Positions 11,444-57,201 of a DNA stretch of 57,201 bases are shown here, in pieces (the stretch's first letter is position 1; each line of letters opens with the position of its first letter). Source of the DNA: Christensenellaceae bacterium (GTDB lineage: Bacteria; Bacillota; Clostridia; Christensenellales; Christensenellaceae); assembly GCA_050945895.1 (NCBI GenBank), contig JBMNTU010000001.1, forward strand, positions 1 through 57,201. The letters run 5' to 3'. A program made the translations under genes and the position numbers. The notes below the pieces were generated by a model. It saw nothing but the letters and a program-made list of their open reading frames with translations. It was not told where the DNA came from and did no database searches.

Positions 11444-11470
11444 ATATCGGCGAATACAAAAAAAACTTTA
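11444..11470 (-). promoter_or_regulatory. Sigma-28 (FliA/SigD) promoter of the fliD operon
   Basis: The minus strand reads TAAA-gttttttttgtattc-GCCGATAT, an exact TAAA-N15-GCCGATAT match, about 45 nt upstream of the fliD ATG. Confidence 0.8.
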
Positions 11471-14500: not shown

Positions 14501-14601
14501 ACATACTATAAAAAGGATAAACATATCTTGCTCCGCTAAACGGTATTGTTTATCCTGTTGTACACGCCGCGTCATCTTTTTCTGTGTTTTTGAAAAAAAC
14601 A

Positions 14602-30146: not shown

Positions 30147-30172
30147 ATTTCCGGTATCATGTACAGAAAATC

Positions 30173-34930: not shown

Positions 34931-34971
34931 TTTTTTTATTAAAAAAAGCTGTATTATCAAAAATACAGCTT
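34931..34971 (-). terminator. Intrinsic terminator after csrA
   Basis: The minus strand reads AAGCTGTATT-tttgat-AATACAGCTT followed by TTTTTAATAAAAAAA. This is a 10-bp perfect stem. Confidence 0.8.
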
Positions 34972-34989
34972 CATATTACTTTGCCCAGT

Positions 34990-40056: not shown

Positions 40057-40067
40057 TCCATCCTGTC

Positions 40068-40367
40068 CTATTCATCCAACAGCACGGCAATGCTCTTTGC
40101 AAGCTCCTCCGAGCTGATCGAATAAGAGCCGCTCGCAATTTTTACCTTTATCCCCTCAACATCAATGTCGGCCCCTGCCAACCTCTCGTTCAGGGAATTT
40201 TTAGCCGCGCGCAGCGTTTCTGCAAACAAAGAAGCGTCGCTGGAGAATTCAATTTTATCGGGCTGCTGTACACTTTGCGTCTCCGCCACTTCTATATTCC
40301 GCCGTACAGCTTTGTACTGCTCCACCACACCGATGGGGGTCGTTGCATTAATCTTCATCTCAGGCAC
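40068..40367 (-). CDS. flgM: Anti-sigma-28 factor FlgM
   Basis: The 99-aa protein has the C-terminal IKVKIASGSYSISSEELAKSI motif and sits in the yvyF-flgM-flgN context. Confidence 0.85.
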   Translation of the reverse strand: MPEMKINATTPIGVVEQYKAVRRNIEVAETQSVQQPDKIEFSSDASLFAETLRAAKNSLNERLAGADIDVEGIKVKIASGSYSISSEELAKSIAVLLDE

Positions 40368-40371
40368 CTCC

Positions 40372-40773: not shown

Positions 40774-40810
40774 TCTATCTTCCGCTCCTCATACCCATCG
40801 TCAATTGTTT

Positions 40811-41575: not shown

Positions 41576-41590
41576 ACCGTTTCAATCTCC

Positions 41591-42352: not shown

Positions 42353-42383
42353 AATTCTACTCCATCACGTTTAATTATTTTAT

Positions 42384-42410
42384 ATATCGGCAGTTACTCA
42401 GAAAACTTTA
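42384..42410 (-). promoter_or_regulatory. Sigma-28 (FliA/SigD) promoter of the flgF...csrA late operon
   Basis: The minus strand reads TAAA-gttttctgagtaact-GCCGATAT, an exact TAAA-N15-GCCGATAT match, about 30 nt upstream of the flgF ATG. Confidence 0.8.
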
Positions 42411-42425
42411 ACGCTTTTTATTCAT

Positions 42426-42953
42426 TTAGTGTGGTAAATGATTGGTGTTCAACTTAAGCATAAAAGCTACTTCGCCCTTAGAAAGCCCCGTGTCCCGCAC
42501 GATCTGGTCAATGCCGCATCCATCTTCAAACATTTTAATCGCCGCCTGTTTTTTTTGGTCGGCCCCTTCCGCCGCACCGGGCAGGCGGTCTGCGGGTTCA
42601 ATCCGTATTCCCATAGAAAGCTGTTCGCCCACATCAGCCGTGTCCGCCGCATTTTCCGCCAGCCTTTTTTCGGAAACAGAAATGCTTTCCCGAATGAGCG
42701 ACACGGCGTTCAGGTCCGTTTCAACGCGCCGGATGTCGCTGTCCAGCTTGTCCATGTGCGCCTCCACATATTCTTTAAAGCTGTCGATCATATCCTCCAC
42801 CTCAAAGTAGAGCATCATAATCTTTTTTTCTTTTTCCTCCAGTTCCTTTTCCCCGTCGTTCTTTCTTTTCTTTTTTCCATGTAAAATCAGAAAGACCAGC
42901 ATAACCGCCAGTCCAAAAACAAACAACGCAAATATATAATACTCAACTCCCAT
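42426..42953 (-). CDS. Uncharacterised membrane-anchored protein with a coiled coil and an HTH-like C-terminus (DUF6115-like)
   Basis: An N-terminal TM helix (YYIFALFVFGLAVMLVFLIL) is followed by KKKRK, a helical middle, and the C-terminal segment IKMFEDGCGIDQIVRDTGLSKGEVAFMLKL. Confidence 0.55.
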   Translation of the reverse strand: MGVEYYIFALFVFGLAVMLVFLILHGKKKRKNDGEKELEEKEKKIMMLYFEVEDMIDSFKEYVEAHMDKLDSDIRRVETDLNAVSLIRESISVSEKRLAENAADTADVGEQLSMGIRIEPADRLPGAAEGADQKKQAAIKMFEDGCGIDQIVRDTGLSKGEVAFMLKLNTNHLPH

Positions 42954-42964
42954 GGTTCCACCTT

Positions 42965-43300
42965 TTATACGTTTATGTCGATTTCGCCGCCCAACCTTTT
43001 GTCGCTGGCTACCCGTAAGCCGTCGTCGGCCTGCGCACCGGCGTCGCCGTCCTGCGCCTCATTCCCCTTGGAAAACTCCGAAGATTCCTGATCCTTCGGG
43101 TCCTTTTGCTTGTCGTCCACCCGGCGGTTTTCGGCATGCTCCAGCTCAGTCACATTTTGCATTTCTGTTAGTGCGCGCTCCTTTTCCAGCGCTGCGGCAA
43201 ACTCCTTCGTGCGCTCGGCGTTCGCCACCTGGTCAGCAGCCTGCCTCGAGAACTCTGCCGACCGTTGTATCATAATCTGGCTGTCAATTCCGCGTATCAT
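42965..43300 (-). CDS. Hypothetical small acidic protein (111 aa)
   Basis: ATG 43300 is preceded by GGAGA at 7-8 nt. The protein (MIRGIDSQIMIQRSAEFSRQAADQ...) is helical then acidic and low-complexity. The longest ORF to 43414 lacks an SD. Confidence 0.5.
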   Translation of the reverse strand: MIRGIDSQIMIQRSAEFSRQAADQVANAERTKEFAAALEKERALTEMQNVTELEHAENRRVDDKQKDPKDQESSEFSKGNEAQDGDAGAQADDGLRVASDKRLGGEIDINV

Positions 43301-43446
43301 CTTCGGTTCTCCTTTCCATTTATTTTCCGTCTTCCTAATCTGCCCTCGCTTTGCCCAAACAACGTCGCCAGTCCCGTTCACATCTGTTTTTCCGTTGCCC
43401 GTTCCTGTTTCCACACACGGCCGCCCAGCTTACACAAGCCGGAACA

Positions 43447-45069
43447 CTAGCTTCTCCGCCGTTTTTCCGGCGGAGCATAAAAGCATGCTTCCGATGCAAT
43501 ATCCTTCCCATGCCTCGAGTACGTCACATACTGGTCGTCCTGCCGGAGCATGTATGCGCTGTTTCCAATAACGATTTTTGTTCCCCGGTAAATCTTGTCC
43601 AGCACATGCACATGCCCGCCCTTTGCATCCTGGATGGCCTGCCCGATCTCCTCGCCTTCCGCATTCAATTCATTGATTTGTGCAGTCAGGCTTCCAATCT
43701 GCATGCTTACCTCCAGGCGCGCTTTGGCGTTTGCGTCCGTCTTGTTTTTTTCCGCCGCCGCCAGCGCCAGCTCCAGCCTTTGCCGCACAGCACCAAGCTG
43801 TTCCACGTTCGCCTGCAGTTCTTTCATTCGGTTCCTTTTTTGCGGCGAAACGCCAATCTCAATCGTTGTCGTAATATTCGCGTCTGTTCCAATAACCTTT
43901 GCCACAACATATTTGCCAGCGCCCACAACGCCGCCCATAATTGCCCCGCGGTTGAGCGAAACGTCCACATACCCTTCACAGGCCACATTGCCCTGTATCA
44001 GGTATTCTGCAGTAATGTTTCCGCCTGCTTCCACATTGGTGCGCTCAATGAAGTTTGCTATAATGTCCCCCCCTGCGCTCACTTTGCTCTTGTCTGCCCC
44101 GCGTATGCCGCTCTTTACGGTAATGTTGCCCTTCGCGTCAAGCATCGCATTTTCCACCAGGCCGTGTACGACAATATTTCCGCCTGCTTCAACCAAAAAA
44201 CCGGAATTAACATTCCCCATAATTTCAATATCGCCGTCAAAACGCACATTTCCCACCGACATATCCACATCGCCGGGAATACGCAGCACCGGCGAAACTA
44301 CGATTTTTCCCTGTGCAAATTCCAGTCTCCCTGCAATTTTCGACAAAAGCGAGAGTTTATCCTCCGAAAGGTATGTATTCTTACCCGCAGGCAAAATTGC
44401 ATCCCTTCCTTTTTTGGCGCCAATTTTAGCGCCTTTTACAGATATTCCATCCACCGGCTCTGTCGCCGGCGTTTTTGTGACCAGCACCTGGTCTTGCTCC
44501 GCCTTTTCAAATTTGCTGATATTCCGCCAGTCAATCTTATCGTTTTCGTTTTCCGCCGCCAGCGCCAAATAATCCATCTGCTCTGTCTCTATATGGTAAG
44601 TCAGCTTAGCGTCTTCCCCATCTACCGGCGGCTGTCCTTTGGCAACCAGCTCGTCCGTATAATACAACCGATCCGAGACAATCCTCTTAATATTATCATC
44701 GATCAATCCAAACGTAACTTTATACTTATCCTCAAGTTCCCGGCGTATTTCATCCTCCGTCAACCGTTCCCCGTCCTCGTCCGCAGGAAACAGCCGCAGC
44801 CAGGCCTCCTGCCCGTCTGCCGAAACCGTCACTTCCATTTCTTCGTTTACAATGCATTCCTCCTGCGCCTCGGCAATCTTTTCCGTTTGCGCCTGTCCGG
44901 CAGAAATCAGCGCCCCAATTTTCGAGGCGTCCGCCCCTGCAATGTTTTTGCGCTTCAAATACCCCACAGCCTGCGCCATATCCATCGGTTTACCGTCTCC
45001 GTCCGGCGGTATCAATGTCAAATAAACGCCGTCCTCCCGGTAATCAAGTTTAATCCTTCCATCTGCCAT
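43447..45069 (-). CDS. FapA/DUF342 family protein
   Basis: The N-terminus reads DGRIKLDYREDGVYLTLIPP. The centre shows beta-helix-like repeats (GNITVKSGIRG, GGDIIANFIE, GGNITAEYLIQG), and the C-terminus is a coiled coil plus YRGTKIVIGN. Confidence 0.7.
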   Translation of the reverse strand: MADGRIKLDYREDGVYLTLIPPDGDGKPMDMAQAVGYLKRKNIAGADASKIGALISAGQAQTEKIAEAQEECIVNEEMEVTVSADGQEAWLRLFPADEDGERLTEDEIRRELEDKYKVTFGLIDDNIKRIVSDRLYYTDELVAKGQPPVDGEDAKLTYHIETEQMDYLALAAENENDKIDWRNISKFEKAEQDQVLVTKTPATEPVDGISVKGAKIGAKKGRDAILPAGKNTYLSEDKLSLLSKIAGRLEFAQGKIVVSPVLRIPGDVDMSVGNVRFDGDIEIMGNVNSGFLVEAGGNIVVHGLVENAMLDAKGNITVKSGIRGADKSKVSAGGDIIANFIERTNVEAGGNITAEYLIQGNVACEGYVDVSLNRGAIMGGVVGAGKYVVAKVIGTDANITTTIEIGVSPQKRNRMKELQANVEQLGAVRQRLELALAAAEKNKTDANAKARLEVSMQIGSLTAQINELNAEGEEIGQAIQDAKGGHVHVLDKIYRGTKIVIGNSAYMLRQDDQYVTYSRHGKDIASEACFYAPPEKRRRS

Positions 45070-45241
45070 TCAAACACTCCCCCTCAAAACACCTGCAACA
45101 GGTCTCTGTCAAAAACGCGGCGTCAACAACCGGCGCTCCATAAACGCATCGCCATACGCTTTCCTGTACCGCCGCCTTTTCCGTCAACCCGCGCACCCCA
45201 ACCCGCACAGATTTTTTTATTTTATATATTCCTAAACAGGG

Positions 45242-46054
45242 TCAATCCTCTTTCATTTGCCGGCCCAGCTGCGTTCGAATCCGCTTCAGAGCCTTCGAAT
45301 GTATCTGCGAAACGCGCGACTCGCTCACTTCCAGTATCTGTGCAATTTCCCGCAGAAGCAGCTCGTCCTTGTAATACAGCTGCAATACCATCCGTTCATT
45401 CTCCGGCAACCCAGACAGCGCCTGCGTAAGCATTTCCAGCATTTCCTTTTTTTCCAGGCTGCTTTCGGGCATAGCCTGCTCATTATCATCCTGCACCGTA
45501 TCAATCAGCTTAACGGACTCATCCTTCGAGTTGGACGCAATCACGTTCTCAAAATACATGATGTTATAAATATACGCGTTATCCCGCGCTTCTTTAACCT
45601 GCTGCTCCGTCAGCCCCAGCGCTTTTGCAACGTCTGCATCTTCCGGCTCCCGGCCTGTCCTCATCACTGCCGCTTCAATTTCACCCGTCACCTTCTTAAT
45701 GCGCTGCCGCATAGAAGACGATATCCAGTCCTGCTTCCGCATAAAATCCAGTATTTCCCCCCGGATTCGCTTATATGCATATGTCTCAAACTTGACATTT
45801 CGGAACTGGTCGAATTTATTGATGGCATCCATTAGGCCAATCACGCCGCTGCTCAGCAAGTCGTCGTAGTCATTTTTAGACTGGTAAACCGGCATCATAC
45901 GCAGCACCACCTTGCGTACAAGATACATATAGTGAAGAAGCAATTCGTTTTTGTTCTCCACCGAAGGGTCGTCAAAATATTTTTCCCACAGCTTATCGGC
46001 GCTGGCTGCCATGTTGTCCATTTCTGTCTGTGTCAAAACATTCCCCCCCTTCAA
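45242..46054 (-). CDS. fliA: Flagellar sigma factor FliA/SigD (sigma-28)
   Basis: Sigma-70 regions 2, 3 and 4 are present (LLSSGVIGLMDAINKFD; FETYAYKRIRGEILDFMR; LREIAQILEVSESRVSQIHSKAL). Confidence 0.9.
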   Translation of the reverse strand: MKGGNVLTQTEMDNMAASADKLWEKYFDDPSVENKNELLLHYMYLVRKVVLRMMPVYQSKNDYDDLLSSGVIGLMDAINKFDQFRNVKFETYAYKRIRGEILDFMRKQDWISSSMRQRIKKVTGEIEAAVMRTGREPEDADVAKALGLTEQQVKEARDNAYIYNIMYFENVIASNSKDESVKLIDTVQDDNEQAMPESSLEKKEMLEMLTQALSGLPENERMVLQLYYKDELLLREIAQILEVSESRVSQIHSKALKRIRTQLGRQMKED

Positions 46055-46092
46055 AGTACTGTCCCGCTAGTATCCCGTTTTTCTGCCGACGG

Positions 46093-46743
46093 TCATTCCG
46101 GGCGCGCAATTTGCTGGTTAAATATAAACCGCCGTATTCGCCTCAGCTGTTTCTCGTCCTCATCTGTAAATTTAAGGCCGATCCGGTAAATGTATTGCCC
46201 CGCAACAAACGAATCCAGCCGCCGTACAATGTGCGCAATAAACAAATACTCGTCTCCGTCAAGGTCAAATTTACACTCGACTTTGTCGCCGACCTTCCAT
46301 TTGATCTCCGCGTTGATGCCAATTCCGCCTTCCGAAATATCCAGCCCCTGGCATTTTATATAGGGCGCATCGTCGCCGCCCTCCGTTAGATTTCGAATAT
46401 AAACATCGTACAGATACTGTAGCCTATACGCTGCGCGGCGCTGCACCTCTTCAATCGGCGATATACGGGTCAGCCTGGTCATCCGCAGGTTGTCGATCTT
46501 ATCTACGCCTTCAATCGATACCAAAAAAGCAAAACACCGTTCCCTGCGAATAAACCTTGCGCTGTATGCCTGGTTCTTCCAGTCCTTGTCCCAAAATACC
46601 TCCCGCAAAAAATCCATTGTCCAAATCGTATCCCCATCAATGTTTTCCACGCGGGTTTTCACGGACGGCCTGCCTGTTTGTTCGATCTCAAGCAGTTCGC
46701 CCAATTCAATATTCACTACTGGTTCCATGTCGTTCCTTCCCAT
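46093..46743 (-). CDS. PilZ-domain flagellar brake-type protein (YcgR/MotI-like)
   Basis: An N-terminal YcgR-like domain is followed by PilZ motifs RRAAYR (RxxxR) and DISEGGIG (DxSxxG). The gene lies between flhG and fliA. Confidence 0.8.
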   Translation of the reverse strand: MGRNDMEPVVNIELGELLEIEQTGRPSVKTRVENIDGDTIWTMDFLREVFWDKDWKNQAYSARFIRRERCFAFLVSIEGVDKIDNLRMTRLTRISPIEEVQRRAAYRLQYLYDVYIRNLTEGGDDAPYIKCQGLDISEGGIGINAEIKWKVGDKVECKFDLDGDEYLFIAHIVRRLDSFVAGQYIYRIGLKFTDEDEKQLRRIRRFIFNQQIARPE

Positions 46744-46750
46744 AGGTCGT

Positions 46751-47647
46751 CTACTGTCCTCCCCTCAAGAACCGGCTGAAAAAGCCTTTCAATCCCTTTG
46801 CCCTTTTGTCCTGTCCTGCATTGCTATCCGTAACTTTGTTTGCCAAAAGCTGTATCTGCTTGGATGCCATGCTCATTGGATATTTTACAATATGCGGCAT
46901 AAAATTACTGATCGACTCTGTCATTTTATCGTCCATAACAATATAGCCAAGCATATCTACTTTATACTGCAAATACTTAAGCGCTACCGTCGAAAAGCTC
47001 GCATGTGTGCTAACCGCTTCGCTCTCCGAGCGCGCTTTGTTAATCAACGTTCGAATCTTTGGCATATTTTTTAATGTAGATGCCGTTTTAAGCACCACGT
47101 ATCCGTCCAGTATAGACGTCGGTTCAGATGTAATCACCAAAATCGTTTCGTCACTGGCATCAATCAGCCGAAGGATACTATTGTTCATTCCTCCGCCCGT
47201 ATCAAACAATATATAGTCCATCGTGTTTTCCAGCGCCGAAAGCTGGCTAATCATATGCTCCAGCTTTATCTCGCTCATCTGTAAAAGGTCTTGGACGCCC
47301 GACCCGCCGGCAATATACCAAACGCCCGGAAAACACTCTTCCATAACCTCGCTTAGGCGCATCTCCCCGCTAATCACATGGCTCAGGTTGTATTGCGAAT
47401 TCACACCCAGCATAATATTGACATTGGAAAAACCAAAATCTGCATCAATAATCGCCACCTTTTTGCCGCACCTCGAAAGCGCTATAGCAAAGTTCACAGT
47501 AAAACTCGTCTTTCCGACGCCGCCTTTCCCGCTGGTAATGCAAAACACAGACGCTTTATTCTCACCGCCGGATGTTTCAGATTCCCCCGCCGACTGTGTG
47601 TTCATTGCATAAATCATTTCGCGCAGTTTCTGCGCCTGGTCACTCAT
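46751..47647 (-). CDS. flhG: MinD-type ATPase FlhG (YlxH)
   Basis: The deviant Walker A SGKGGVGKTS is present, and the gene follows flhF. Confidence 0.9.
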   Translation of the reverse strand: MSDQAQKLREMIYAMNTQSAGESETSGGENKASVFCITSGKGGVGKTSFTVNFAIALSRCGKKVAIIDADFGFSNVNIMLGVNSQYNLSHVISGEMRLSEVMEECFPGVWYIAGGSGVQDLLQMSEIKLEHMISQLSALENTMDYILFDTGGGMNNSILRLIDASDETILVITSEPTSILDGYVVLKTASTLKNMPKIRTLINKARSESEAVSTHASFSTVALKYLQYKVDMLGYIVMDDKMTESISNFMPHIVKYPMSMASKQIQLLANKVTDSNAGQDKRAKGLKGFFSRFLRGGQ

Positions 47648-47650
47648 ACA

Positions 47651-48832
47651 TCAATTCTCCAGAATCGAATCCACGATTTCCCGCGGGTTTATTTCTGCAA
47701 TATCATCCGGCACGCCCTGCCCTGTTGTTATATACGAGAGCGGACGGTTTGCCATCTCAGCAATGTTCAAAATCATTCCTCTTGTTTTTACTTCATCCAC
47801 CTTTGTTACAATAATACTATGCGTTTTCAAAAACGAGTAGTTTTCCAGTATCTGCGCCGTCACCCGGCCCGCCGTAGACGCAGCCAGCGTCAGGTACACA
47901 TCCTCAATCTCCCCATACCGCATCAGCTCAATAATCTCATTCCGGTATGCCTCATCGTCCGACACCTTTCCCGCCGTATCCAAAAAGACCACGTCCTTCG
48001 TCTTAAATGCGTCCAACGCGTCAACAATCTCCTCCGAATTATAAATCGTCAGCATTTCCGTATTCAGTATATCGCAATATGCCTTCAGCTGGTCCTGCGC
48101 CGCAACCCGGAATACATCTGTGTTGATAATGCCAACCGAAAGCTTCTGCTCTACCACCAACTGCGAGGCCAGCTTAACCAGCGTGGTCGTTTTGCCAACG
48201 CCCGTCGGCCCAACCAGCATAACAACCTTTTGCTTGAATTTTGTGCTCCGGATGGGGTTTGTTTTTCCAATCGTATCCTGCATCAGCTGCGCCATCACCT
48301 CTTCCACTCCGGCGCTCCGGCTGTTCGCAATCTCCTCGGCCTTGCCGCAAAGCTCCTTGGCAAGCTCTGTTTCCACATCGTTTTCCGTCAGCTTTGTATA
48401 AAGCTCCAATATCTTACCCGTAAAGGGCACATCCGGTTTCACCTTCACGCTGCTGTATGTATCGATCTTGCTGCCCACTTCACTAATCAAGTTTCTCAGC
48501 TCGCCAATGCTCTCATCAATACTTTCAATTTTCTGGTCATTGCTTTTCTGGTTATCCTGCAACTCCTCCACAAGCTTTTCCAACGCTTTTTCATGCTTGT
48601 CGTCTTTTTTCGGTTGGGCAACAACCTCTTTCACAACCTTTTTCTCCGTCACCACCGGTTTTTCTTCGTATCCCGCCATCACTTCCAGTATTTTTTTGGA
48701 GAATAATCCAAAAAATCCGCTTCTGGAGCGAACCTGCTTGCTGCTTAAGATAACCGCGTCCGGCCCAAGCTCTTCTTTTATTACGCGAAGGGCTTCCTGC
48801 ATATTGTCAGCATGGAATTTTTTTAGCCTCAT
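47651..48832 (-). CDS. flhF: SRP-type GTPase FlhF
   Basis: The GTPase motifs are G1 GPTGVGKTTT, DTAG and TKVDE. Confidence 0.9.
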   Translation of the reverse strand: MRLKKFHADNMQEALRVIKEELGPDAVILSSKQVRSRSGFFGLFSKKILEVMAGYEEKPVVTEKKVVKEVVAQPKKDDKHEKALEKLVEELQDNQKSNDQKIESIDESIGELRNLISEVGSKIDTYSSVKVKPDVPFTGKILELYTKLTENDVETELAKELCGKAEEIANSRSAGVEEVMAQLMQDTIGKTNPIRSTKFKQKVVMLVGPTGVGKTTTLVKLASQLVVEQKLSVGIINTDVFRVAAQDQLKAYCDILNTEMLTIYNSEEIVDALDAFKTKDVVFLDTAGKVSDDEAYRNEIIELMRYGEIEDVYLTLAASTAGRVTAQILENYSFLKTHSIIVTKVDEVKTRGMILNIAEMANRPLSYITTGQGVPDDIAEINPREIVDSILEN

Positions 48833-48872
48833 GCACTTTATCCTTTCTCAAATCCCTTACTCTATTCTACCC

Positions 48873-50930
48873 CTAGCTGGCCTTGCTCAATCCAACAACG
48901 CCATCCGAGAATACCTCCACCGACTCTTCCAGTTCATTATACGACAGAACCACCAAATCCGGAACCATCTGGCTGGTAACGCTCTTAAACTGCCTGCGCA
49001 CAAGCGGCGAAGTCAACACGATGGGCGTAATCCCAAGCTGGTTCATGCGCTCGATCGCCGAACGCAGGCTCAGGAAAATCTGCTGTATCTCCTCCTGCGT
49101 CAACGCTACATAAGTCCCCTGCTCCGTCGTCTTGGTCTTTTCGGCAATCAGCTGCTCCAGCGCAGGGTCCAGCGTAATGACGCGCGCCTTGTCCGTCGGA
49201 ATAAAGCGCTTGGAAATAGAACGGTACAAGCTCTTCCTCACATATTCGGTCATCAGCTCCAAATCGCGCACCGCACCCCCATGGTCGGCCATCGTTTCCA
49301 AAATCGTCCCCATATCGCGGATAGAAATATTTTCCCGCAGCAGGTTGCCCAGCACCTTTTGCACCTCGCCCAGCGAAAACAACTTGGGCACCACTTCTTC
49401 CACAAGCGCAGGCTGCGACGTTTTCAGGTTGTCCAGCAGTGTCCGTACCTGCTGGCGCGTCAGCAGCTCGAAGCTGTGTCGTTTGATGGTTTCGGTCAGG
49501 TGCGTCGCAATAACAGACGGCGCATCCACCGTCGTGTAGCCCATCATTTCCGCGCGTTCGCGGTCTGCCTCCGGTATCCACACAGCCGGCAGCCCAAACG
49601 TTGGCTCCAGCGTTTCAATTCCCGTTAGCTTGCCTTTAACATCGTTTGTGGAAAGCGCCATAATGTGGTCAAGCATAACCTCGCCTTTTGCCACTTCCAC
49701 GCCCTTTATCTTAATAACATATTCATTCGTGCCCAGCTGTATATTGTCGCGTATACGAATAACCGGCACAATAATGCCCTGGTCCAGCGCACACTGCCGG
49801 CGGATCATAACAACGCGCTCCAAAAGGTCCCCGCCCTGGCTGGCGTCAACAAGCGGTACCAGGCCATAGCCCAGTTCTATGCCAATCAGCTCCACCTGCA
49901 AAAGTGAGGTAACGTTCTCCGGCTTGCGCTTCTCCTTTGCCGCTTCTTCCACCTGGTCCTGCGGTATCTGTATCTCCTCGGGCTTTTTTGCCGCCTTGTT
50001 CATCGCATATCCGGCAAAAATCATAATGCCCGCAATGATAAACACCGGCACCTTGGGGAAGCCGGGAATCATTGCAATCACCACCAGCATGCCGCCCAGT
50101 ATATAAAAAATCGTCGGCTGCCGGGAAAACTGCTCTGCCAGGTCGCGCCCCAGGTTTTCCTTGGAGGACGAACGCGTTACAATAATACCCGTCGCAATAG
50201 ACACCATCAGCGCAGGAATCTGGCTCACCAACCCGTCACCAATCGTCGCAATCGTATAAATCTGCAAAATATCCGTCATCGGCATTGCTTCTTCGTTCAT
50301 CATCATGCCAATGATCAGTCCGCCGACAATGTTAATGACCGTAATGATGATACCTACGATCGCATCGCCCTTCACAAACTTGGTAGAACCGTCCATCGCG
50401 CCGTAAAAATCCGCTTCCCGCGTAATTTTCTCACGCCGCTCCTTGGCCTGCTGTTCATCGATCAGGCCAGAGTTCAAATCCGCGTCAATCGCCATCTGCT
50501 TACCGGGCATCGCATCCAGTGTAAAGCGTGCCGAAACTTCGGCCACACGCTCTGCGCCCTTCGTAATAACCACAAACTGTATGACGACAATAATCAAGAA
50601 TATGATAATACCAACAATCAGGTTGTTGCCCGTCGCAAAGCTCCCGAATGCGTTGATGACCTCGCCCGCCTGGCCGCCATTGCCCAAAATCAGCCTCGTG
50701 GACGCCACGTTCAACCCCAGCCGGAACAACGTCATAATCAGCAGCAACGAAGGGAACGACGAAAAATCAAGCGCCTCCCTTACATAAAGTGTCATCAGCA
50801 AAACAAGCAAAGACGCCGAAATGTTGATCACCAAAAACACATCCAGCACACTGGATGGTATGGGCAGGATAATCAGCATGACTACTGCAAATACAACTAA
50901 TGCAATCCAGGCGTCCTTTATCTTCATCAA
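48873..50930 (-). CDS. flhA: Flagellar export gate protein FlhA
   Basis: The 685-aa protein has an N-terminal polytopic domain containing FHIPEP-type sequence, followed by a cytoplasmic domain. Confidence 0.95.
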   Translation of the reverse strand: MMKIKDAWIALVVFAVVMLIILPIPSSVLDVFLVINISASLLVLLMTLYVREALDFSSFPSLLLIMTLFRLGLNVASTRLILGNGGQAGEVINAFGSFATGNNLIVGIIIFLIIVVIQFVVITKGAERVAEVSARFTLDAMPGKQMAIDADLNSGLIDEQQAKERREKITREADFYGAMDGSTKFVKGDAIVGIIITVINIVGGLIIGMMMNEEAMPMTDILQIYTIATIGDGLVSQIPALMVSIATGIIVTRSSSKENLGRDLAEQFSRQPTIFYILGGMLVVIAMIPGFPKVPVFIIAGIMIFAGYAMNKAAKKPEEIQIPQDQVEEAAKEKRKPENVTSLLQVELIGIELGYGLVPLVDASQGGDLLERVVMIRRQCALDQGIIVPVIRIRDNIQLGTNEYVIKIKGVEVAKGEVMLDHIMALSTNDVKGKLTGIETLEPTFGLPAVWIPEADRERAEMMGYTTVDAPSVIATHLTETIKRHSFELLTRQQVRTLLDNLKTSQPALVEEVVPKLFSLGEVQKVLGNLLRENISIRDMGTILETMADHGGAVRDLELMTEYVRKSLYRSISKRFIPTDKARVITLDPALEQLIAEKTKTTEQGTYVALTQEEIQQIFLSLRSAIERMNQLGITPIVLTSPLVRRQFKSVTSQMVPDLVVLSYNELEESVEVFSDGVVGLSKAS

Positions 50931-50991
50931 TTACCTCACAACACCATTTATACCATTTTAATAGACAACGGACAGTTCTTCAAGTAATTTA

Positions 50992-52077
50992 TCACCGGTT
51001 ATAACGGTCTGCCCGCTTGCGCCGGTAAACCTGCGCCAAAATCTCCGCAACCGCCTGATACAGCTCCACCGGTATAAAGTCCCCAATCTCGCAATATGCA
51101 TAAAGCGAACGTGCCAGCGGTTTGTCCTCCATGATTTCTACATTGTGCTCCTGCGCAATCTCCTTTATCTTGGCAGCAATCAGGTTTTTTCCCTTCGCTA
51201 CCACCCTGGGCGCGTCGGCTACCGCTTCGTCATACCTTAGCGCCACCGCATACTCTGTCGGGTTGGTAATGACGACGTCCGCGTCGGGTACAGAGCTCAT
51301 CATGCGCATCATCGCCATCTCGCGCTGCTTCTGCTTAATTTTTCCCTTAATCTGCGGGTCGCCCTCCTGCTGCTTCATTTCCATCTTCACTTCATACTTG
51401 CTCATCATCAGGTCTTTTTCATATTTTCTGCGCTGGAACATATAATCCACCGCCGCAATAATCGCCAGAAAAGCAAGCACCTTGAAGGCCGCGTTCACAA
51501 TCATATCCGCAATCTGCAGCACCGCCGCATGCACGCCGACATTCATCAGCGTCGGAAACACCTCCAGGTTGTTCGTTATTTCCTGATAAACAACAAGCCC
51601 AATAACGGCAACCTTCAAAAGCGACTTCAAAAGCTCAAACACGCCCCGCATCGAAAAAATACGTTTAAACCCCTCCACTGGGTTCAGGCGGCTCATTTTG
51701 GGCTCCATCGCCTTTGTGCTGAACAAAAACCCCGTCTGTATTACATTTATTAATACAGCTGCAACGAGCGCCACCGCCAATATAGGCAGCAAAATCGTCA
51801 AAAGCCCGACAGCCATGTTGTTTGCAATGGGCAGAAAGCTTCCAATCTCCATCTGCTCCATTGTCATATGCGTTCCCGAAAGATATTCTCCCGCAAAGCT
51901 AAACAGGTTTTCCGCAATCATGGGCATAAGCCCCCTAAGTGCGGCAAACATAATCAGCATAGAGCCAACCATAACAAGCTCATTGCTTTTTAATACTTGG
52001 CCACGCTCCCTCGCATCTTTGCGTTTTTTAGGGGTGGCCTCCTCAGTTCTTTCGCCAGCGCTGCTATCATCTGCCAA
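50992..52077 (-). CDS. flhB: Flagellar export switch protein FlhB (autocleavage site reads NPTE)
   Basis: The N-terminus is GERTEEATPKKRKDARERGQV, followed by four TM helices. The C-terminal domain carries VVITNPTEYAVALRYD where NPTH is usual. Confidence 0.9.
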   Translation of the reverse strand: MADDSSAGERTEEATPKKRKDARERGQVLKSNELVMVGSMLIMFAALRGLMPMIAENLFSFAGEYLSGTHMTMEQMEIGSFLPIANNMAVGLLTILLPILAVALVAAVLINVIQTGFLFSTKAMEPKMSRLNPVEGFKRIFSMRGVFELLKSLLKVAVIGLVVYQEITNNLEVFPTLMNVGVHAAVLQIADMIVNAAFKVLAFLAIIAAVDYMFQRRKYEKDLMMSKYEVKMEMKQQEGDPQIKGKIKQKQREMAMMRMMSSVPDADVVITNPTEYAVALRYDEAVADAPRVVAKGKNLIAAKIKEIAQEHNVEIMEDKPLARSLYAYCEIGDFIPVELYQAVAEILAQVYRRKRADRYNR

Positions 52078-52087
52078 GCCACATCAC

Positions 52088-52876
52088 CTACCCTGTCATC
52101 GTGGCGAACATCCTGTCGAACCCCACATACATCTGGTCAAATATATATGTCGTAAACGGTACATAGATGGGCATGACCGCAAACATAACAATAAACCCTA
52201 AAATCACCTTCATCGGCATACCAATGGAAAAAGCATTCATCTGCGGCACAACGCGCATCAAAATGCCCAAGCATGCCTCACCCAAAAGACCAGAGCCAAT
52301 AATAGGCATCGCCACAATAGCAGCCAATACAAACGCCTCCACAAAAAGCTCGGCCGCCACCAGCCCAATGGCCGGGTTAAACGTCACGCTTCCAATGGGC
52401 ATCTTTATAACGGAAGCGTACATGATCTGTACCAGCTTGTGGTGCCCGTCCACCATAAAGAACACCACCAGCATGATGATATTATAAAAGTTTCCCGTCA
52501 TCGGTATGGAGAGATTGCTCTGGACGTCAAACACGTTAACCATACCAAAGCCCATCTGCATATCGATCATCTGCCCTGCCGTAAACGTCAGCGTAAAAAA
52601 CAGGTTGAGCACATATCCAAACACCACCCCAAACAGCAGTTCCTTTACACACAGCAGGATATAAATAAAAATATCGTCGCCGTAGCTAATGGGCGCAAGC
52701 TCGGGTATTCCCGTATAAAACAGCAATGCAATACATGCGCAATAACCGATCTTTACGGTATTCGGTATGTTCCGCCGTCCAAAAATCGGGGAAGAAAATA
52801 TCAGCCCCGATACCCGCAGGAACAAAAGCAAAAAGTAATCCCAGTTATAAACAAGCGCAGTAATGAGCGTATCCAT
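52088..52876 (-). CDS. fliR: Flagellar export apparatus protein FliR
   Basis: This is a 262-aa polytopic protein between fliQ and flhB. Confidence 0.9.
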   Translation of the reverse strand: MDTLITALVYNWDYFLLLFLRVSGLIFSSPIFGRRNIPNTVKIGYCACIALLFYTGIPELAPISYGDDIFIYILLCVKELLFGVVFGYVLNLFFTLTFTAGQMIDMQMGFGMVNVFDVQSNLSIPMTGNFYNIIMLVVFFMVDGHHKLVQIMYASVIKMPIGSVTFNPAIGLVAAELFVEAFVLAAIVAMPIIGSGLLGEACLGILMRVVPQMNAFSIGMPMKVILGFIVMFAVMPIYVPFTTYIFDQMYVGFDRMFATMTG

Positions 52877-52878
52877 AG

Positions 52879-53121
52879 CTACGTCGCAATCATCAGCGCA
52901 TAATCGTACATGCGCTGGGCAAATTCCGTCAGGTTAGAGAGCATCATTCCGCCAAAAATCAACAACGCCAAAAGTATGCCGACAATTTTGGGAACAAATG
53001 TCAGCGTCTGCTCGTTCACCTGTGTCGCCGCCTGGAATATAGAAATTACCACGCCAATAATCAGGCCGATGCCAATCGGCGGCAAAGATACGACCAGTAC
53101 CGTACCAATCGCATCCTGCAT
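52879..53121 (-). CDS. fliQ: Flagellar export apparatus protein FliQ (annotated start probably too short)
   Basis: The motif ISIFQAATQVNEQTLTFVPKIVGILLAL is present. ATG 53121 has no SD. The in-frame upstream residues IIEQATVISV extend the FliQ-like N-terminus back to ATT codons at 53146-53151, behind an AAGGAG. Confidence 0.85.
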   Translation of the reverse strand: MQDAIGTVLVVSLPPIGIGLIIGVVISIFQAATQVNEQTLTFVPKIVGILLALLIFGGMMLSNLTEFAQRMYDYALMIAT

Positions 53122-53173
53122 AACAGATATAACTGTTGCTTGCTCAATAATGGCCCATCAACTCCTTGGTTTT

Positions 53174-53200
53174 GCGTGTATTATCATGCGTAATACACGC
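53174..53200 (-). other. Perfect 10-bp stem-loop in the unusually long fliP-fliQ spacer
   Basis: The sequence reads GCGTGTATTA-tcatgcg-TAATACACGC. On the mRNA it ends 6 nt before the AAGGAG that precedes fliQ. No U-run follows, so it is not a terminator. Confidence 0.6.
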
Positions 53201-53243
53201 GAGAAAATCCCTTTGCTATCACGCATTACCCGCTACAGCGCAG

Positions 53244-54059
53244 CTATCCGAAGCTCGTCAGCAGCGTTTGCATCGTCAGCGTCCATCCGTCTACCAATAT
53301 AAACAGCAATACCTTAAACGGCAGCGAAATAACGATAGGTGGAAGCATCATCATACCCATTGCCATCAACGTAGACGCAACCACCATATCAATAACGATA
53401 AACGGAATATAAATAAAGAACCCGATTTGGAACCCCCGCTTAAGCTCACTTGTAATAAATGCGGGAATAATCGTCATAATCGGAATCTCATCCAGCGTTT
53501 CTACAGGCTCCATCTCGGAAAAACTCATAAACATCTCAAGGTCGGCTTTGTATGTCTGGCGCAGCATAAACTCCCGAATGGGCGCCTCCGCTGCATCCAT
53601 TGCCTCATCAAACGTTATTTCCTCCGCAATATACGGGTCAATCGCCTCTTCCTTCACCGTCGTCAAAACCGGCGACATTGCAAAAAACGTCAGGAAAATA
53701 GCCAGCGCTACCAGTACCTGATTGGGCGGCATTTGCTGCAACCCCATTGCATTTCTGGTAAACGAAAGCACAAGGATAATGCGCACAAAGCCCGTCATCA
53801 TCATCAAAATTGCCGGCGCAATACTTAAAATCGTAAGCAGGCCAACCAGCTGCAAGCTTTGCGAGCGGCTTCCTAAGAGCTGGGCCAAAGGCCCGGCGTC
53901 ATCATCGCCGATCGCGTCACCCTCTGCATCCGCACAACCGCCCAGCACTGCTACGCAAAGTACTAAAACCAAAATAAAAACAGCTATTTTAGCAAATTTT
54001 CTCTTTGTCGATTTAGATTTGCCAACCCTCTTGCTTTTCAATACTACTGCTGCCCCCAC
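53244..54059 (-). CDS. fliP: Flagellar export apparatus protein FliP
   Basis: A signal-like N-terminus is followed by LLTILSIAPAILMMMTGFVRIILVLSFTRNAMG and the FliP core. The start is GTG. Confidence 0.9.
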   Translation of the reverse strand: MGAAVVLKSKRVGKSKSTKRKFAKIAVFILVLVLCVAVLGGCADAEGDAIGDDDAGPLAQLLGSRSQSLQLVGLLTILSIAPAILMMMTGFVRIILVLSFTRNAMGLQQMPPNQVLVALAIFLTFFAMSPVLTTVKEEAIDPYIAEEITFDEAMDAAEAPIREFMLRQTYKADLEMFMSFSEMEPVETLDEIPIMTIIPAFITSELKRGFQIGFFIYIPFIVIDMVVASTLMAMGMMMLPPIVISLPFKVLLFILVDGWTLTMQTLLTSFG

Positions 54060-54085
54060 AAGCGTCCCCTACCCAAAAGGCCGCT

Positions 54086-54704
54086 TCATCCTTCCTTCCG
54101 GCCACCGTTTTCTCCTTCGGCGTCCTCCTCTTGCTGTATCCTTTTTCCCAGTTCGCTTTCAAACGTTCCGGGCTCGCTTTTTTTCCACTCCCGCTTAAAA
54201 AACCTTTTGCGAAAACCGTCTCCCCGCTCCTTGGCCTGCATTTTAAAATTATCTGCAAAGCGCCTCCAAAAGCTATCCGGCTCAGCTGCCTCAACATCAC
54301 AAGAGGCGGCAGGGTTACCATTCGAATCCTCCGCCTCATCAATATCTTCCATATGCTCTACTACAGTTTCGGGAGCAGGCACCTTATCGAGCAGGCGTAT
54401 CTCCTGGCCGGTCGTGCTCATCAGGTAATACTTCCCCTGAAATTCAACCACCATAAGTGTCTTGTCACGGTCCACCGCAACCCTGTCCACAATCGCCAGC
54501 AAACGTTCTTCCCCATCCTTAGAGAAGAACGTCGCCTTCAGGTTTGCTTTTAGGCGCGTTTTTGGTGGACACACCTTTTTTTAGCCTGCGCTGCGTAATA
54601 TACTTTGTCAAAAAATACAGCGCCAGTACAATAATAACCAAGTAAACGATGACAACAATAATATTCCTCGCATCCACCGGTGCGGCTAGCTGTTCGTCTA
54701 CCAT
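54086..54704 (-). pseudogene. fliO: fliO (fliZ-type) split into two overlapping ORFs by a frameshift in an A7 tract
   Basis: ORF 54519-54704 encodes the TM helix (IIVVIVYLVIIVLALYF) plus a basic stretch. ORF 54086-54574 encodes the FliO soluble part (LLAIVDRVAVDRDKTLMVVEFQGKYYLMSTTGQEIRLLDKV). Removing one A from the A7 run (plus-strand T7 at 54576-54582) fuses them into a protein of about 205 aa. Confidence 0.7.
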
Positions 54705-54719
54705 TGGCCAATCATCCTC

Positions 54720-55022
54720 TTATACCTGCATATTCATGATATTATTATATGCATCGATTACTTTATTGCGTACTTCAATAACCATATTCAGCGCCAGTTC
54801 AGATTTTGTGCTGTTAATCATCACCTGCGCGATATTATCAACGTCGCCCGTCAAAAGCGCCTCCGTGTCTTCAACCGTTACGGCATACAAATCGTCCGCA
54901 TCCCGAATCGCATCCGTCAGCATATTTTTGAAGGACTCGCCCTCCGCGCCGCCAACACTGCTATTTTTTGTAAGCCCGCCGGCAAAACCAGGCGTACTGC
55001 CAATTCCACTTACTGTATTCAT
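54720..55022 (-). CDS. fliE: Flagellar hook-basal body protein FliE
   Basis: The 100-aa protein carries FKNMLTDAIRDADDL and the C-terminal ELALNMVIEVRNKVIDAYNNIMNMQV. Confidence 0.9.
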   Translation of the reverse strand: MNTVSGIGSTPGFAGGLTKNSSVGGAEGESFKNMLTDAIRDADDLYAVTVEDTEALLTGDVDNIAQVMINSTKSELALNMVIEVRNKVIDAYNNIMNMQV

Positions 55023-55048
55023 TCGTCCCTATCCCTTCCCAGTCTTAT

Positions 55049-55486
55049 CTATTTTCCAATTTCAAGCGCTTTCATGGCCATGCTCTTCACAGAATTCAAC
55101 ACTGTAATATTGGCTTCATACGACCGTGTAGAGCTCATCATGTCCACCATCTCGCGCGACAGCTCCACATTGGGCATTTGCACATACCCAAATTCATCCG
55201 CATCCGGATGGCTTGGGTTATAGTCCAGCGTAAACGGCGACTGGTCTTCCAAAATTTCCGTAACCCGTACACCTGTTCCGGCCGTGCCCGCAATCGAATG
55301 GTTGAGGCTGTCCGTAAAGGACATGTGCTCTTTTGCCTGAAAAATCACGTAACGCCTTCTGTAGGGCTCACCCTCGGCAGTGCGCGTTGTTTGTATGTTT
55401 GCTACGTTTTCCGCCACAACATCCATCCGAAGCCGCTGCGCCGTAAGCGCAGACGAAGTAATATCCATCGAACTTAAAAATGCCAT
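55049..55486 (-). CDS. flgC: Flagellar proximal rod protein FlgC
   Basis: The N-terminus is MDITSSALTAQRLRMDVVAENVANIQTT and the C-terminus is PNVELSREMVDMMSSTRSYEANITVL. Confidence 0.95.
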   Translation of the reverse strand: MAFLSSMDITSSALTAQRLRMDVVAENVANIQTTRTAEGEPYRRRYVIFQAKEHMSFTDSLNHSIAGTAGTGVRVTEILEDQSPFTLDYNPSHPDADEFGYVQMPNVELSREMVDMMSSTRSYEANITVLNSVKSMAMKALEIGK

Positions 55487-55506
55487 TTTATCCCCCTTTT
55501 ATTCCG

Positions 55507-55905
55507 CTACTGACCTCTTATGGCCATGCGAAGCTGAGAAAATTGCCCATTCACTTTTTGAGTCAGCGTGTTATAGTAAATGACGTTTTTCGCAAAATCG
55601 GTTGTTTCCTTATCAATGTCCACATTGTTTCCGTCCATGCGCTCCGTCGTCTGCGATGTTGTAACCATCCCGTCCACGCTATCAAACTCAGACCCAATAA
55701 CCATATGTGTCCGGCGGGTGCGTTTTAAGCCAAAGTCATCCGCACCATTTCGGATTGCATCCTCAAAAAATCGTTCGAACTGAATCTCGGACGCTTTAAA
55801 ATCTGGCGTATCAACATTTGCGATATTATTTTGGATGATCTTGTTCCGTTTCCAGGATGCATTGACGCCGCGCGCCAGAAGGTCTACCCCACTAAAAATA
55901 TTCAT
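55507..55905 (-). CDS. flgB: Flagellar proximal rod protein FlgB
   Basis: The motifs IIQNNIANVDTPDFK and DGNNVDIDKETTDFAKNVIYYNTL are present. Confidence 0.95.
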   Translation of the reverse strand: MNIFSGVDLLARGVNASWKRNKIIQNNIANVDTPDFKASEIQFERFFEDAIRNGADDFGLKRTRRTHMVIGSEFDSVDGMVTTSQTTERMDGNNVDIDKETTDFAKNVIYYNTLTQKVNGQFSQLRMAIRGQ

Positions 55906-56014
55906 GCTGCTGCTCCTTCGCTCACCAGAGAGCCTCTCGTCCTCAGCCTCCCTGCCTCGCTACTGTCCATTCCCATAAAAAACCAGCATCCCTGCGTATA
56001 CGGTCAAAATATAC

Positions 56015-56041
56015 TAAATATGTTACTGTACCAGCCGATAT
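56015..56041 (+). promoter_or_regulatory. Consensus sigma-28 promoter on the plus strand, pointing antisense into cheV
   Basis: The plus strand reads TAAA-tatgttactgtacca-GCCGATAT. This is the same exact TAAA-N15-GCCGATAT format as the fliD and flgF promoters. No plus-strand gene follows within the window. Confidence 0.6.
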
Positions 56042-56048
56042 TTGTCAA
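56020..56048 (-). promoter_or_regulatory. Putative sigma-A promoter of the flgB early operon
   Basis: The minus strand reads TTGACA-aatatcggctggtacag-TAACAT (17-nt spacer), about 110 nt upstream of the flgB ATG. It overlaps the plus-strand sigma-28 motif. Confidence 0.5.
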
Positions 56049-56073
56049 CTGAACAATTTGTAACAAAAACGTC

Positions 56074-57024
56074 CTACTGCGCTTCCGCCTGAAGCTCTCC
56101 ATGATGCTTTCCAAAAAGCTGGTGCACAATGGAAACCAACTTGGCAATCTCCGGCTTAGAAAGCTGTGCGTCTGCGCCGCAGTTGTTTCCCCTCAAAATC
56201 ATTTCGTCCGACAATATAGACGAGAATATAATGACCGGCAGGTGCTTTAAGTTGCGCTCCTCACGGATCAACTTAATCAGCCTGTAGCCGTCCATCTGCG
56301 GCATTTCAATATCTGTAATAACAAGCCGCACGTCATTATCAATCGCCACTTCGTCATCCTTGATGCTCTCCAGAAAATTCCACGCTTCCTGGCCGTTGTC
56401 AAACGTCCGTATGTTGTCAAACCCAGCCCGGTGCAGCGATTCCAACAGCATTCCCGTCAAAAAGCGGGAATCCTCCGCAATCAAGATCGGGTAATTTTTG
56501 TACTTGTCACCGGCGTATTCCTCTACCTCATCAAGCTGTATGCCTGTTTCCGGCGCAATTTCCGTAACAATCTTCTCAAAATCAAGTATGGTAATCAACC
56601 GGTTCTCAAACGAAGCCAATCCCGTAATGATTCCCTCCATACCACCGCTAACCGTCTTGTCAGGTTTTTCAATGTCCGCCCATGTAATCTTACGGATCCC
56701 CTCCACCGTGTGCACACGAAACGCCAGCTGCATCTGGTTGAAGTGTGTAACAATCAACAGATCCTTTTCCGCGTCGTGCTCGGGCGGTTCTGCAAGCCCC
56801 AGGTACTGCGGCAGGTTAATAACGGTAAGCACGGTGTCCCTCGGCTTAAAAACGCCCTCCACCGCAGGATGGGAATGCGGCATCGGTTTGATTTTCGTGA
56901 CCATCATAATCTCCAATATCTTGGCCACGTTAATACCAAACACGTCTCCGGAAATCGTAAATTCCACAATTTCCATTTCATTTGTGCCCGGCTCAATAAT
57001 TTCTTGCTTTTTAATCTCTTCCAT
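56074..57024 (-). CDS. cheV: Chemotaxis protein CheV (CheW-like domain fused to a receiver domain)
   Basis: The N-terminal CheW domain (IVEFTISGDVFGINVAKILEIM .. FKPRDTVLTVINL) is followed by a C-terminal REC domain (ILIAEDSRFLTGML .. LVITDIEMPQMDG .. KP). The start is set at ATG 57024 behind GGGGGA; a GTG start at 57045 is also possible. Confidence 0.9.
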   Translation of the reverse strand: MEEIKKQEIIEPGTNEMEIVEFTISGDVFGINVAKILEIMMVTKIKPMPHSHPAVEGVFKPRDTVLTVINLPQYLGLAEPPEHDAEKDLLIVTHFNQMQLAFRVHTVEGIRKITWADIEKPDKTVSGGMEGIITGLASFENRLITILDFEKIVTEIAPETGIQLDEVEEYAGDKYKNYPILIAEDSRFLTGMLLESLHRAGFDNIRTFDNGQEAWNFLESIKDDEVAIDNDVRLVITDIEMPQMDGYRLIKLIREERNLKHLPVIIFSSILSDEMILRGNNCGADAQLSKPEIAKLVSIVHQLFGKHHGELQAEAQ

Positions 57025-57063
57025 GATCAGTCCCCCGCCACTCACAGATTTTCATTTACAGTA

Positions 57064-57091
57064 ATTATAGCATAAATCCATACAATGTAAC
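57064..57091 (-). promoter_or_regulatory. Putative sigma-A promoter of cheV
   Basis: The minus strand reads GTTACA-N16-TGcTATAAT (extended -10), about 40 nt upstream of the cheV start. Confidence 0.45.
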
Positions 57092-57201
57092 AGCAAAAGT
57101 TTATGTTTGTTAGTGTCAAGTAAACGTTGGCAAGCAAGAGCCTTTTACAAAAGATATAATGACATTTGTTTTTCGTATCTATGACAACATCATATCACTG
57201 A

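Follow-up and report, generated by a model that had tools for sequence, protein, structure and literature searches.

Can a promoter motif for the late flagellar sigma factor, lying on the strand opposite to every gene around it and interleaved with a promoter of the operon that encodes this same factor, work as a promoter, and would its use matter for that operon? We addressed this question at the cheV-flgB junction of a Christensenellaceae bacterium. The window, which is the whole contig of 57,201 nt, was found by Pfam and NCBIfam scans to hold one large flagellar and chemotaxis cluster lying entirely on the minus strand, in agreement with the original prediction that all neighbouring genes are encoded there. 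In transcription order, the early block comprises cheV, flgB, flgC, fliE, fliO, fliP, fliQ, fliR, flhB and flhA, followed by flhF, flhG, a gene for a PilZ protein, fliA and FapA. The next blocks consist of a flgF/G-like pair, flgM, flgN, flgK, flgL, fliW and csrA, and then of cheC, cheD, cheY, cheA and cheW; the last ones run from fliF through fliN/Y and cheB, and then over fliD, fliS and cheR. The nearest named relatives are Christensenellaceae and 'Clostridiales' MAGs. The genes and motifs needed for the question are the following.

56015..56041, plus strand: exact sigma-28 (FliA/SigD-type) promoter motif TAAA-N15-GCCGATAT, by exact pattern match
42384..42410, minus strand: reference sigma-28 promoter (exact pattern) before the flgF/flgG-like pair, flgM, flgN, flgK, flgL, fliW and csrA
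11444..11470, minus strand: reference sigma-28 promoter (exact pattern) before fliD-fliS
56074..57024, minus strand: cheV, 316 aa, with CheW and receiver domains (PF01584, PF00072); homologues are named CheV
55507..55905, minus strand: flgB, the first rod gene after the interleaved promoters (TIGR01396, 99 bits, cutoff 59)
45242..46054, minus strand: fliA, the sigma-28 factor, late in the same early operon (Sigma70 r2/r3/r4; FliA_WhiG TIGR02479, 234 bits, cutoff 189.6)
40068..40367, minus strand: flgM, the anti-sigma-28 factor (PF04316)

An exact sigma-28 motif on the plus strand

Pattern searching recovered the motif on the plus strand (TAAATATGTTACTGTACCAGCCGATAT), exactly as had been claimed from the letters. 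It divides into TAAA-TATGTTACTGTACCA-GCCGATAT, with the -35 TAAA at 56015-56018 and the -10 GCCGATAT at 56034-56041; all 12 core positions match and the -35 to -10 distance is 15 nt. The exact pattern occurs three times in the 57.2-kb window, here and at the two minus-strand sites before fliD and flgF, which share the identical 12/12 format, as originally noted. In B. subtilis, operons of the same kinds (flgF/G...flgM...flgL-type and fliD-fliS) are SigD-dependent. Perfect sites stand before both of these operons in the window, and the FliA of this strain therefore evidently reads the classical consensus. The window thus has both the matching sigma factor and further copies of the motif at its late flagellar operons.

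The three exact matches compare with an expectation of 0.03 per window in 100 shuffles. Under a first-order Markov model, 0.0098 matches were expected in the whole window, 0.0011 in its 3.65 kb of intergenic DNA and 5e-5 in the 168-nt gap between cheV and flgB. The argument that a chance match is unlikely was therefore upheld (three found vs 0.01-0.03 expected): the match is not by chance. The relaxed pattern TAAA-N14-16-NNCGATAN gave six matches in the window, the intergenic ones being the three exact sites only. When up to two mismatches were allowed, ten matches were obtained against a background of 6 +/- 2.7, i.e. not above background, and none of the sites with one or two mismatches in the window was intergenic.

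Part of the motif is contributed by the DNA in which it lies. The flanks TTGACAAATAT and GTAACATAT are common to the window and to orthologous sigma-A promoters, and these conserved flanks supply the -10 ATAT and one T of the -35 at no cost. With the flanks granted, about seven more positions (CGGC and TTA) must match in register, for which the probability is roughly 5e-5. Even when post hoc selection of the site is allowed for, pure coincidence appears an improbable origin of the motif.

Beyond the core, the extended -35 at the 56015 site reads TAAATATG and differs from the TAAAGTTT of both late sites. Elsewhere, the extended -35s are TAAAGTTTT at the two late sites and TAAAGTTTG and TAAAGTTAA at sigma-28-like sites of two relatives (L003 and L164, respectively), with TAAAGTT in all of them; the extended -35 of the clade, TAAAGTTT, is not found at the antisense site. 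Because TAAATATG is unlike the clade's other sites, the status of the motif as a fully canonical sigma-28 promoter is weakened. The sequence itself is secure: of two independent Logan assemblies built from other runs, one (L001) is identical to the window over 2514 nt and the second (L002) differs by one SNP, at 57063. The motif is thus no assembly artefact.

Two interleaved predicted promoters between cheV and flgB

The gap between cheV and flgB contains both promoters, and a further promoter precedes cheV.

55906..56073: cheV-flgB intergenic region, 168 nt, holding both promoters and a flgB leader of ~107 nt
56020..56048, minus strand: internal sigma-A promoter PA(flgB), with -35 TTGACA at 56048-56043, a 17-nt spacer and -10 TAACAT at 56025-56020
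56048..56051, plus strand: predicted FliA-dependent transcript start, placed 7-10 nt past the -10 by the usual sigma-28/SigD geometry
57064..57091, minus strand: cheV sigma-A promoter with extended -10 (GTTACA-16-TGcTATAAT), from a promoter scan

The motif had been described as interleaved with a minus-strand TTGACA-N17-TAACAT element, and this element is present and interleaved with it. It is among the two best minus-strand sigma-70-type matches in 40000-57201, and its predicted start lies near 56013 (-). The sigma-28 -10 sits within the sigma-A spacer and adjoins the sigma-A -35, while the -35 of the sigma-28 motif borders on the sigma-A -10. Transcription is predicted to start at ~56013 (-) and ~56049 (+), two points ~36 bp apart, and to run in diverging directions. 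From this geometry, it is predicted that the FliA and sigma-A holoenzymes cannot both occupy the shared ~35 bp simultaneously. A substitution of GCCGATAT by GCCGGCAT would leave TTGACA, the 17-nt spacer and TAACAT intact. The fold of the flgB leader was unremarkable (z = -1.4).

The predicted plus-strand start lies ~25 nt outside the cheV stop codon (56074) and heads antisense into cheV, so that the layout is that of an opposite-strand promoter aimed into the gene. At the level of sequence, orientation and predicted start both agree with the transcript antisense to cheV that had been proposed. Neither terminator prediction nor a relaxed hairpin-plus-U scan found a plus-strand intrinsic terminator in 56045-57201; the best candidate of the relaxed scan, at 56183, was weak. 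An Rfam search of 55400-57201 on both strands gave no match at E <= 1, and the fold of the first 253 nt of the transcript was not unusual (z = -1.7). A defined sRNA was rejected on the lack of a plus-strand terminator and of an unusual fold. Across the whole window, Rfam at the gathering threshold returned only a TPP riboswitch, elsewhere.

The original prediction had counted a single downstream plus-strand reading frame of 19 codons. This count did not hold, as the downstream plus-strand ORFs include frames of 49, 52, 188 and 214 aa, which are antisense shadow ORFs. Its conclusion that no credible plus-strand gene follows did stand: a Pfam search of the 49-214 aa ORFs gave no match, on which ground a hidden plus-strand gene was rejected. 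Downstream of the motif there is neither a properly oriented gene nor a defined RNA, and the predicted transcript is likely an untranslated, short-lived cheV-antisense RNA with an undefined end.

The extended -10 upstream of cheV has counterparts in the clade. Of the seven relatives checked, six (L163, L164, L165, L166, L167 and L003) have TGnTATAAT/TATAGT ahead of cheV, and L075 lacks it. No terminator was found between cheV and flgB in the window, and the gap between the two genes is only 10-48 nt in six relatives (L163, L166, L167, L168, L169 and L075). Short gaps, the extended -10 of cheV and the lack of a terminator together indicate that cheV is the first gene of the early operon. The cheV promoter is thus probably the primary promoter of cheV-flgB-...-fliA, and the flgB promoter is, by the same sequence evidence, predicted to be an internal, dispensable extra. 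The claim that TTGACA-N17-TAACAT is the only plausible sigma-A promoter for flgB...fliA had to be given up, given the cheV extended -10 promoter and the absence of a terminator after cheV. Since the cheV promoter offers flgB a second source of transcription, occlusion of the internal promoter may matter little.

The cheV-flgB junction in relatives

CheV scans of genomes and metagenomes gave a best identity of 59%, and the protein database held a single 88% CheV relative (L163), on a contig of 1857 nt with a cheV-flgB gap of 28 nt. Through CheV and FlgB homologues, 13 flgB-upstream regions were gathered, 12 of them independent (L170 = L171). Eleven were cheV-flgB junctions; in the other two (L170 and L171), an HD-domain gene, not cheV, precedes flgB. 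Three relatives (L165, L172 and L173) have long gaps with an orthologous promoter, gGTTGACAAA-N14/15-GTAACATA, and PA(flgB) is credible because the promoter is kept in them. To compare the window with the L165 gap, the two were registered by anchoring on GTTGACAAA, as MAFFT had mis-registered the promoters.

The original prediction had looked to the flgB upstream regions of relatives for conservation of the plus-strand motif, and the comparison went against it. L165, L172 and L173 keep the sigma-A promoter with no sigma-28 motif on either strand of their gaps, and L163, the closest relative, has lost the whole gap. The antisense sigma-28 site was absent from this junction in every relative examined. 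In two relatives (L003, identical to L083, and L164), a sigma-28-like promoter stands 36-45 nt past cheV in sense orientation (TAAAGTTTGGAATGTTTTTCCCGATAT and TAAAGTTAAAGAGGTTTTTGACGATAA), and sigma-28 input at the junction would in these relatives be positive, not negative. When the plus strand of the window was compared with the L003 and L164 gaps, nothing aligned beyond the motif itself.

We also considered whether sigma-28 promoters antisense to cheV are a general theme. In ~1.02 Mb covering 160 other cheV loci, only four independent sigma-28-type matches were found and none was an antisense site downstream of cheV, and the theme was rejected. The antisense motif is thus not conserved in orthologous regions, the nearest informative relatives being at ~60% CheV identity. 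On this comparison, the motif appears lineage-specific, and with relatives this distant its origin may be recent. The cheV-flgB junction appears to be a hot spot of promoter turnover in the clade.

On its other side, cheV lies near the end of the contig, with 156-177 nt of sequence beyond its start. Relatives have a divergent gene upstream of cheV, on what would be the plus strand of the window: cysS in L165, L172 and L173, and in L164 a gene with a FliB_C domain.

What the antisense motif may do

Tentatively, we favour the reading that the motif is a real but young, lineage-specific FliA promoter, placed back-to-back with PA(flgB) and damping the early operon. Under this reading, FlgM would release FliA, and FliA-polymerase would bind the motif and start near 56048-56051 (+), so that FlgM would gate the timing of firing. 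The product would be an untranslated, terminator-less RNA antisense to the 3' part of cheV, possibly to all of it, and probably short-lived. Either holoenzyme would shut the other out of the shared ~35 bp, and the outgoing polymerase would collide head-on with polymerases coming from the cheV promoter. Firing would then reduce both transcription into flgB...fliA and cheV mRNA, as a modest late-to-early damping and not a hard switch.

The steps of this proposal differ in how probable they are. From the sequence we infer binding, initiation, the RNA and the effect on flgB or cheV alike. We lean somewhat towards the candidate site being bound and firing; a measurable effect on flgB or cheV is doubtful, and it is unlikely that such an effect would be a selected feedback function. 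A brake on the early flagellar genes is thus plausible and not an established circuit. Rather unlikely, too, is FliA negative autoregulation of the early operon by promoter architecture alone, in which sigma-A polymerase would be evicted, firing would be head-on and cheV would be silenced by the antisense RNA, the sense site in L003 and L164 giving positive feedback.

Published work offers precedents for the individual steps. Experiments on overlapping divergent promoters have shown that competition between polymerases can by itself repress one direction once the other is strongly activated, and bidirectional promoters with basal activity are free of such competition (PMC12825309). In a cell with active FliA, a perfect sigma-28 site could be such a strongly activated direction. 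Of the 52 FliA sites of E. coli, 30 lie within genes, and non-canonical FliA promoters are numerous in this species and for the most part lack conservation (Fitzgerald et al. 2014, PMC4183435; Fitzgerald et al. 2017, bioRxiv 10.1101/188474); most non-canonical sites are active promoters (bioRxiv 10.1101/188474). In both C. difficile and Legionella, the flagellar clusters contain antisense starts (PMC7438776).

Among known systems, the non-canonical FliA promoters of E. coli and Salmonella resemble the locus in several respects (PMC4183435; bioRxiv 10.1101/188474). They too are consensus-like sigma-28 sites without a properly oriented gene, their predicted RNA is non-coding and probably unstable (antisense here, as is the hypD asRNA), and they are lineage-specific and not conserved. 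Unlike them, the site studied here is intergenic and matches the core perfectly, and, unlike the E. coli sites, it is interleaved with a sigma-A promoter of FliA's own operon, which gives an obvious route for feedback. The B. subtilis fla/che operon likewise has both site types upstream of flgB, PD3 (sigma-D) and PA (sigma-A), and encodes the sigma factor (Mordini et al. 2013, PMC3874003). In B. subtilis, however, both promoters aim into flgB and PD3 provides positive feedback (PMC3874003), whereas the sigma-28 site in the window faces away and overlaps PA, so that any effect on flgB would be negative. A sigma-D promoter oriented as flgB, in tandem with PA, is not present in the window and is found in L003 and L164, which resemble the B. 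subtilis layout.

Bidirectional promoters also place opposite-strand promoters on the same DNA (Warman et al., bioRxiv 10.1101/2020.01.31.928960; PMC12825309). Promoters of the Warman type are pseudo-symmetric sigma-70 promoters with overlapping -10 elements, whereas here two sigma factors are involved and each -10 lies beside the other's -35; the -10s, at 56020-56025 (-) and 56034-56041 (+), do not overlap. The Listeria excludon anti0677, which is sigma-B dependent, similarly has an alternative-sigma promoter aimed antisense across flagellar-cluster genes (PMC4179725). In Listeria, the antisense RNA doubles as the message of the divergent mogR and depends on a stress sigma factor (PMC4179725), whereas our contig ends without a downstream sense gene and transcription would depend on the flagellar sigma factor itself. 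Finally, the C. difficile flagellar switch Cdi4 (PMC5386303) is also a regulatory element close ahead of flgB, and the early operon, with sigD, is under its control. It is invertible, flanked by inverted repeats and acts after initiation; here, neither flanking repeats nor a second orientation was seen.

The alternative that survives best shares its first step with our favoured reading and differs from it in consequence alone. FliA-polymerase would initiate at the motif, the RNA would be unstable noise, flgB and cheV would be unaffected, and the site, having drifted into the unconstrained spacer of the sigma-A promoter, would be lost again. This fits the absence of the motif from all relatives, including the three with the orthologous sigma-A promoter, a predicted RNA without defined end or structure, the many intragenic FliA sites of E. 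coli, and a cheV promoter that can feed flgB transcription anyway. Drift to a perfect 12/12 site exactly within the early promoter is very unlikely, however (5e-5), and, as the site overlaps the sigma-A promoter fully, a high occupancy by FliA-polymerase could hardly go without some competition. We therefore hold an inconsequential promoter to be possible and on the whole not likely.

That the motif is a chance look-alike that is never used is less likely again. Productive binding of FliA-polymerase would here be prevented by the extended -35, by sigma-A polymerase occupancy or by read-through from cheV. The extended -35 is indeed unlike that of every other sigma-28-type site seen in the clade, the flanks give the -10 ATAT and one T of the -35 for free, the site was picked post hoc, and relatives lack it. 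The chance expectation speaks against this account, both in the window and in the gap (0.01-0.03 and ~5e-5), as do the ~7 free positions that still need to match and the lack of intergenic sites with one or two mismatches that would hint at a noisy background.

Much less probable is an excludon or long leader, in which the FliA transcript would cross cheV as the mRNA of a plus-strand gene just past the contig end, switching this gene on and lowering both cheV and flgB expression. The missing plus-strand terminator in 56045-57201, the divergent gene upstream of cheV in relatives and the precedent of anti0677 in a flagellar locus would all suit it. Against it, the window ends at 57201, before any target gene, and the divergent neighbour in the relatives that share PA(flgB) is cysS, a housekeeping gene with no reason for FliA dependence; a 1.1-kb untranslated leader would be prone to Rho termination, and no relative has the motif.

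The least probable account, and a very remote one, is that the site is a sense PD3-type promoter of flgB turned round, either as one state of an invertible switch or by a small inversion that became fixed. The sense sigma-28-like promoters that L003 and L164 have at this junction, PD3 and PA in B. subtilis (PMC3874003) and the C. difficile switch (PMC5386303) would lend it some sense. Against it, every inverted-repeat pair found has an arm within cheV or flgB, the motif and a sigma-A promoter colinear with its orthologues are interleaved base by base, so that no inversion breakpoints are visible, and similarity to the L003 and L164 gaps is confined to the motif. An invertible switch as such was rejected, as a repeat search of 55700-56400 found no inverted repeats bracketing the promoters and three assemblies have the same single orientation.

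The locus is thus best filed as a known kind, a non-canonical FliA promoter or overlapping divergent promoter, whose new aspect is that two sigma factors are involved and that the site lies within a promoter of FliA's own operon. If our favoured reading is true, this would be a minimal late-to-early negative feedback, in which the late sigma factor shuts a promoter of its own operon without a repressor protein. The sign of FliA feedback would then have flipped within one clade merely by the orientation of a 27-bp motif, a clear example of how promoter orientation can change the sign of regulation and of two sigma factors competing for one site. If the promoter is merely young and inconsequential, the abundance of non-canonical, non-conserved FliA promoters known from E. 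coli and Salmonella would extend to an uncultured Clostridia lineage, and even perfect consensus sites could be evolutionary noise. Apart from the motif, the comparison points to a sigma-A early operon headed by cheV in this clade, and to the cheV-flgB junction as a hot spot of promoter turnover.

Head of the early operon

Upstream of cheV, the following motif was found.

57064-57091, minus strand: extended -10 promoter (sequence motif)

An extended -10 promoter (TGnTATAAT/TATAGT) likewise lies 5' of cheV in six of the seven relatives checked (L163, L164, L165, L166, L167 and L003), and the cheV-flgB gap spans just 10-48 nt in six relatives. These promoters and short gaps place cheV at the head of the sigma-A early flagellar operon in this clade. 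In B. subtilis, by contrast, cheV stands on its own and depends on SigD.

Two further genes were located inside the early operon, the first between flhG and fliA and the second after fliA.

46093-46743, minus strand: PilZ-domain protein
43447-45069, minus strand: FapA-family protein

The former is a candidate YcgR-like c-di-GMP brake.

Leaders and gaps within the cluster

The 5' leader of flgB carries two tandem 14-nt GGA-rich repeats on the minus strand (55931-55958; GAGGCAGGGAGGCT / GAGGACGAGAGGCT), and the AAGGAG ribosome-binding site of flgB is just downstream of both. Two genes of the same cluster bear on these repeats.

34990-35238: csrA
35210-35701: fliW

Given their presence, the repeats could be CsrA-binding sites.

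csrA and cheC are separated by a 475-nt non-coding gap (34515-34989, minus strand), which matched no Rfam family. At its start is a terminator-like hairpin, AAGCTGTAT...ATACAGCTT, and then a T run; the gap also includes a sigma-A-type promoter (TTGATT-17-TATAAT), whose leader is ~120 nt long. This promoter makes the cheC-cheD-cheY-cheA-cheW operon look sigma-A-driven rather than sigma-28-driven. In the fairly GC-rich cheW-fliF gap (284 nt; 29889-30172, minus strand), neither a recognisable sigma-A or sigma-28 promoter nor an Rfam match was found.

The gap 5' of the second FliK-like gene (12520-14415) lies at 14416-14549 on the minus strand and contains GACGATAG, similar to the -10 element GACGATAA of the relative L164. 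There is no clean TAAA at 15 nt from GACGATAG in this gap; the site may be a weak sigma-28-type promoter.

Unassigned frames and the cluster edge

Four open reading frames within the flagellar cluster had no match in Pfam or NCBIfam.

11493-12497, minus strand: 334 aa
14550-14954, minus strand: 134 aa
8169-8600, minus strand: 143 aa
42965-43414, minus strand: 149 aa

A riboswitch was detected at the edge of the cluster.

5837-5946, minus strand: TPP riboswitch (RF00059; 63.9 bits, above gathering)

It precedes an ECF/cobalt-type transporter and NMT1/THI5 gene set (5129-5824, 4183-5067, 2739-4181 and 2054-2752). These genes probably form an operon for the uptake of thiamine or HMP.

Sense promoters at the cheV-flgB junction

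Two relatives have a sigma-28-like promoter facing flgB, directly 5' of the gene, at the same junction as the window's antisense site.

L003 4957-4983 (identical to L083 3957-3983), plus strand: TAAAGTTTGGAATGTTTTTCCCGATAT
L164 5283-5309, ~24 nt into the cheV-flgB gap: TAAAGTTAAAGAGGTTTTTGACGATAA

The arrangement in L003 and L164 resembles PD3, the sigma-D promoter facing flgB in the B. subtilis fla/che operon, and would be of the positive-feedback type.
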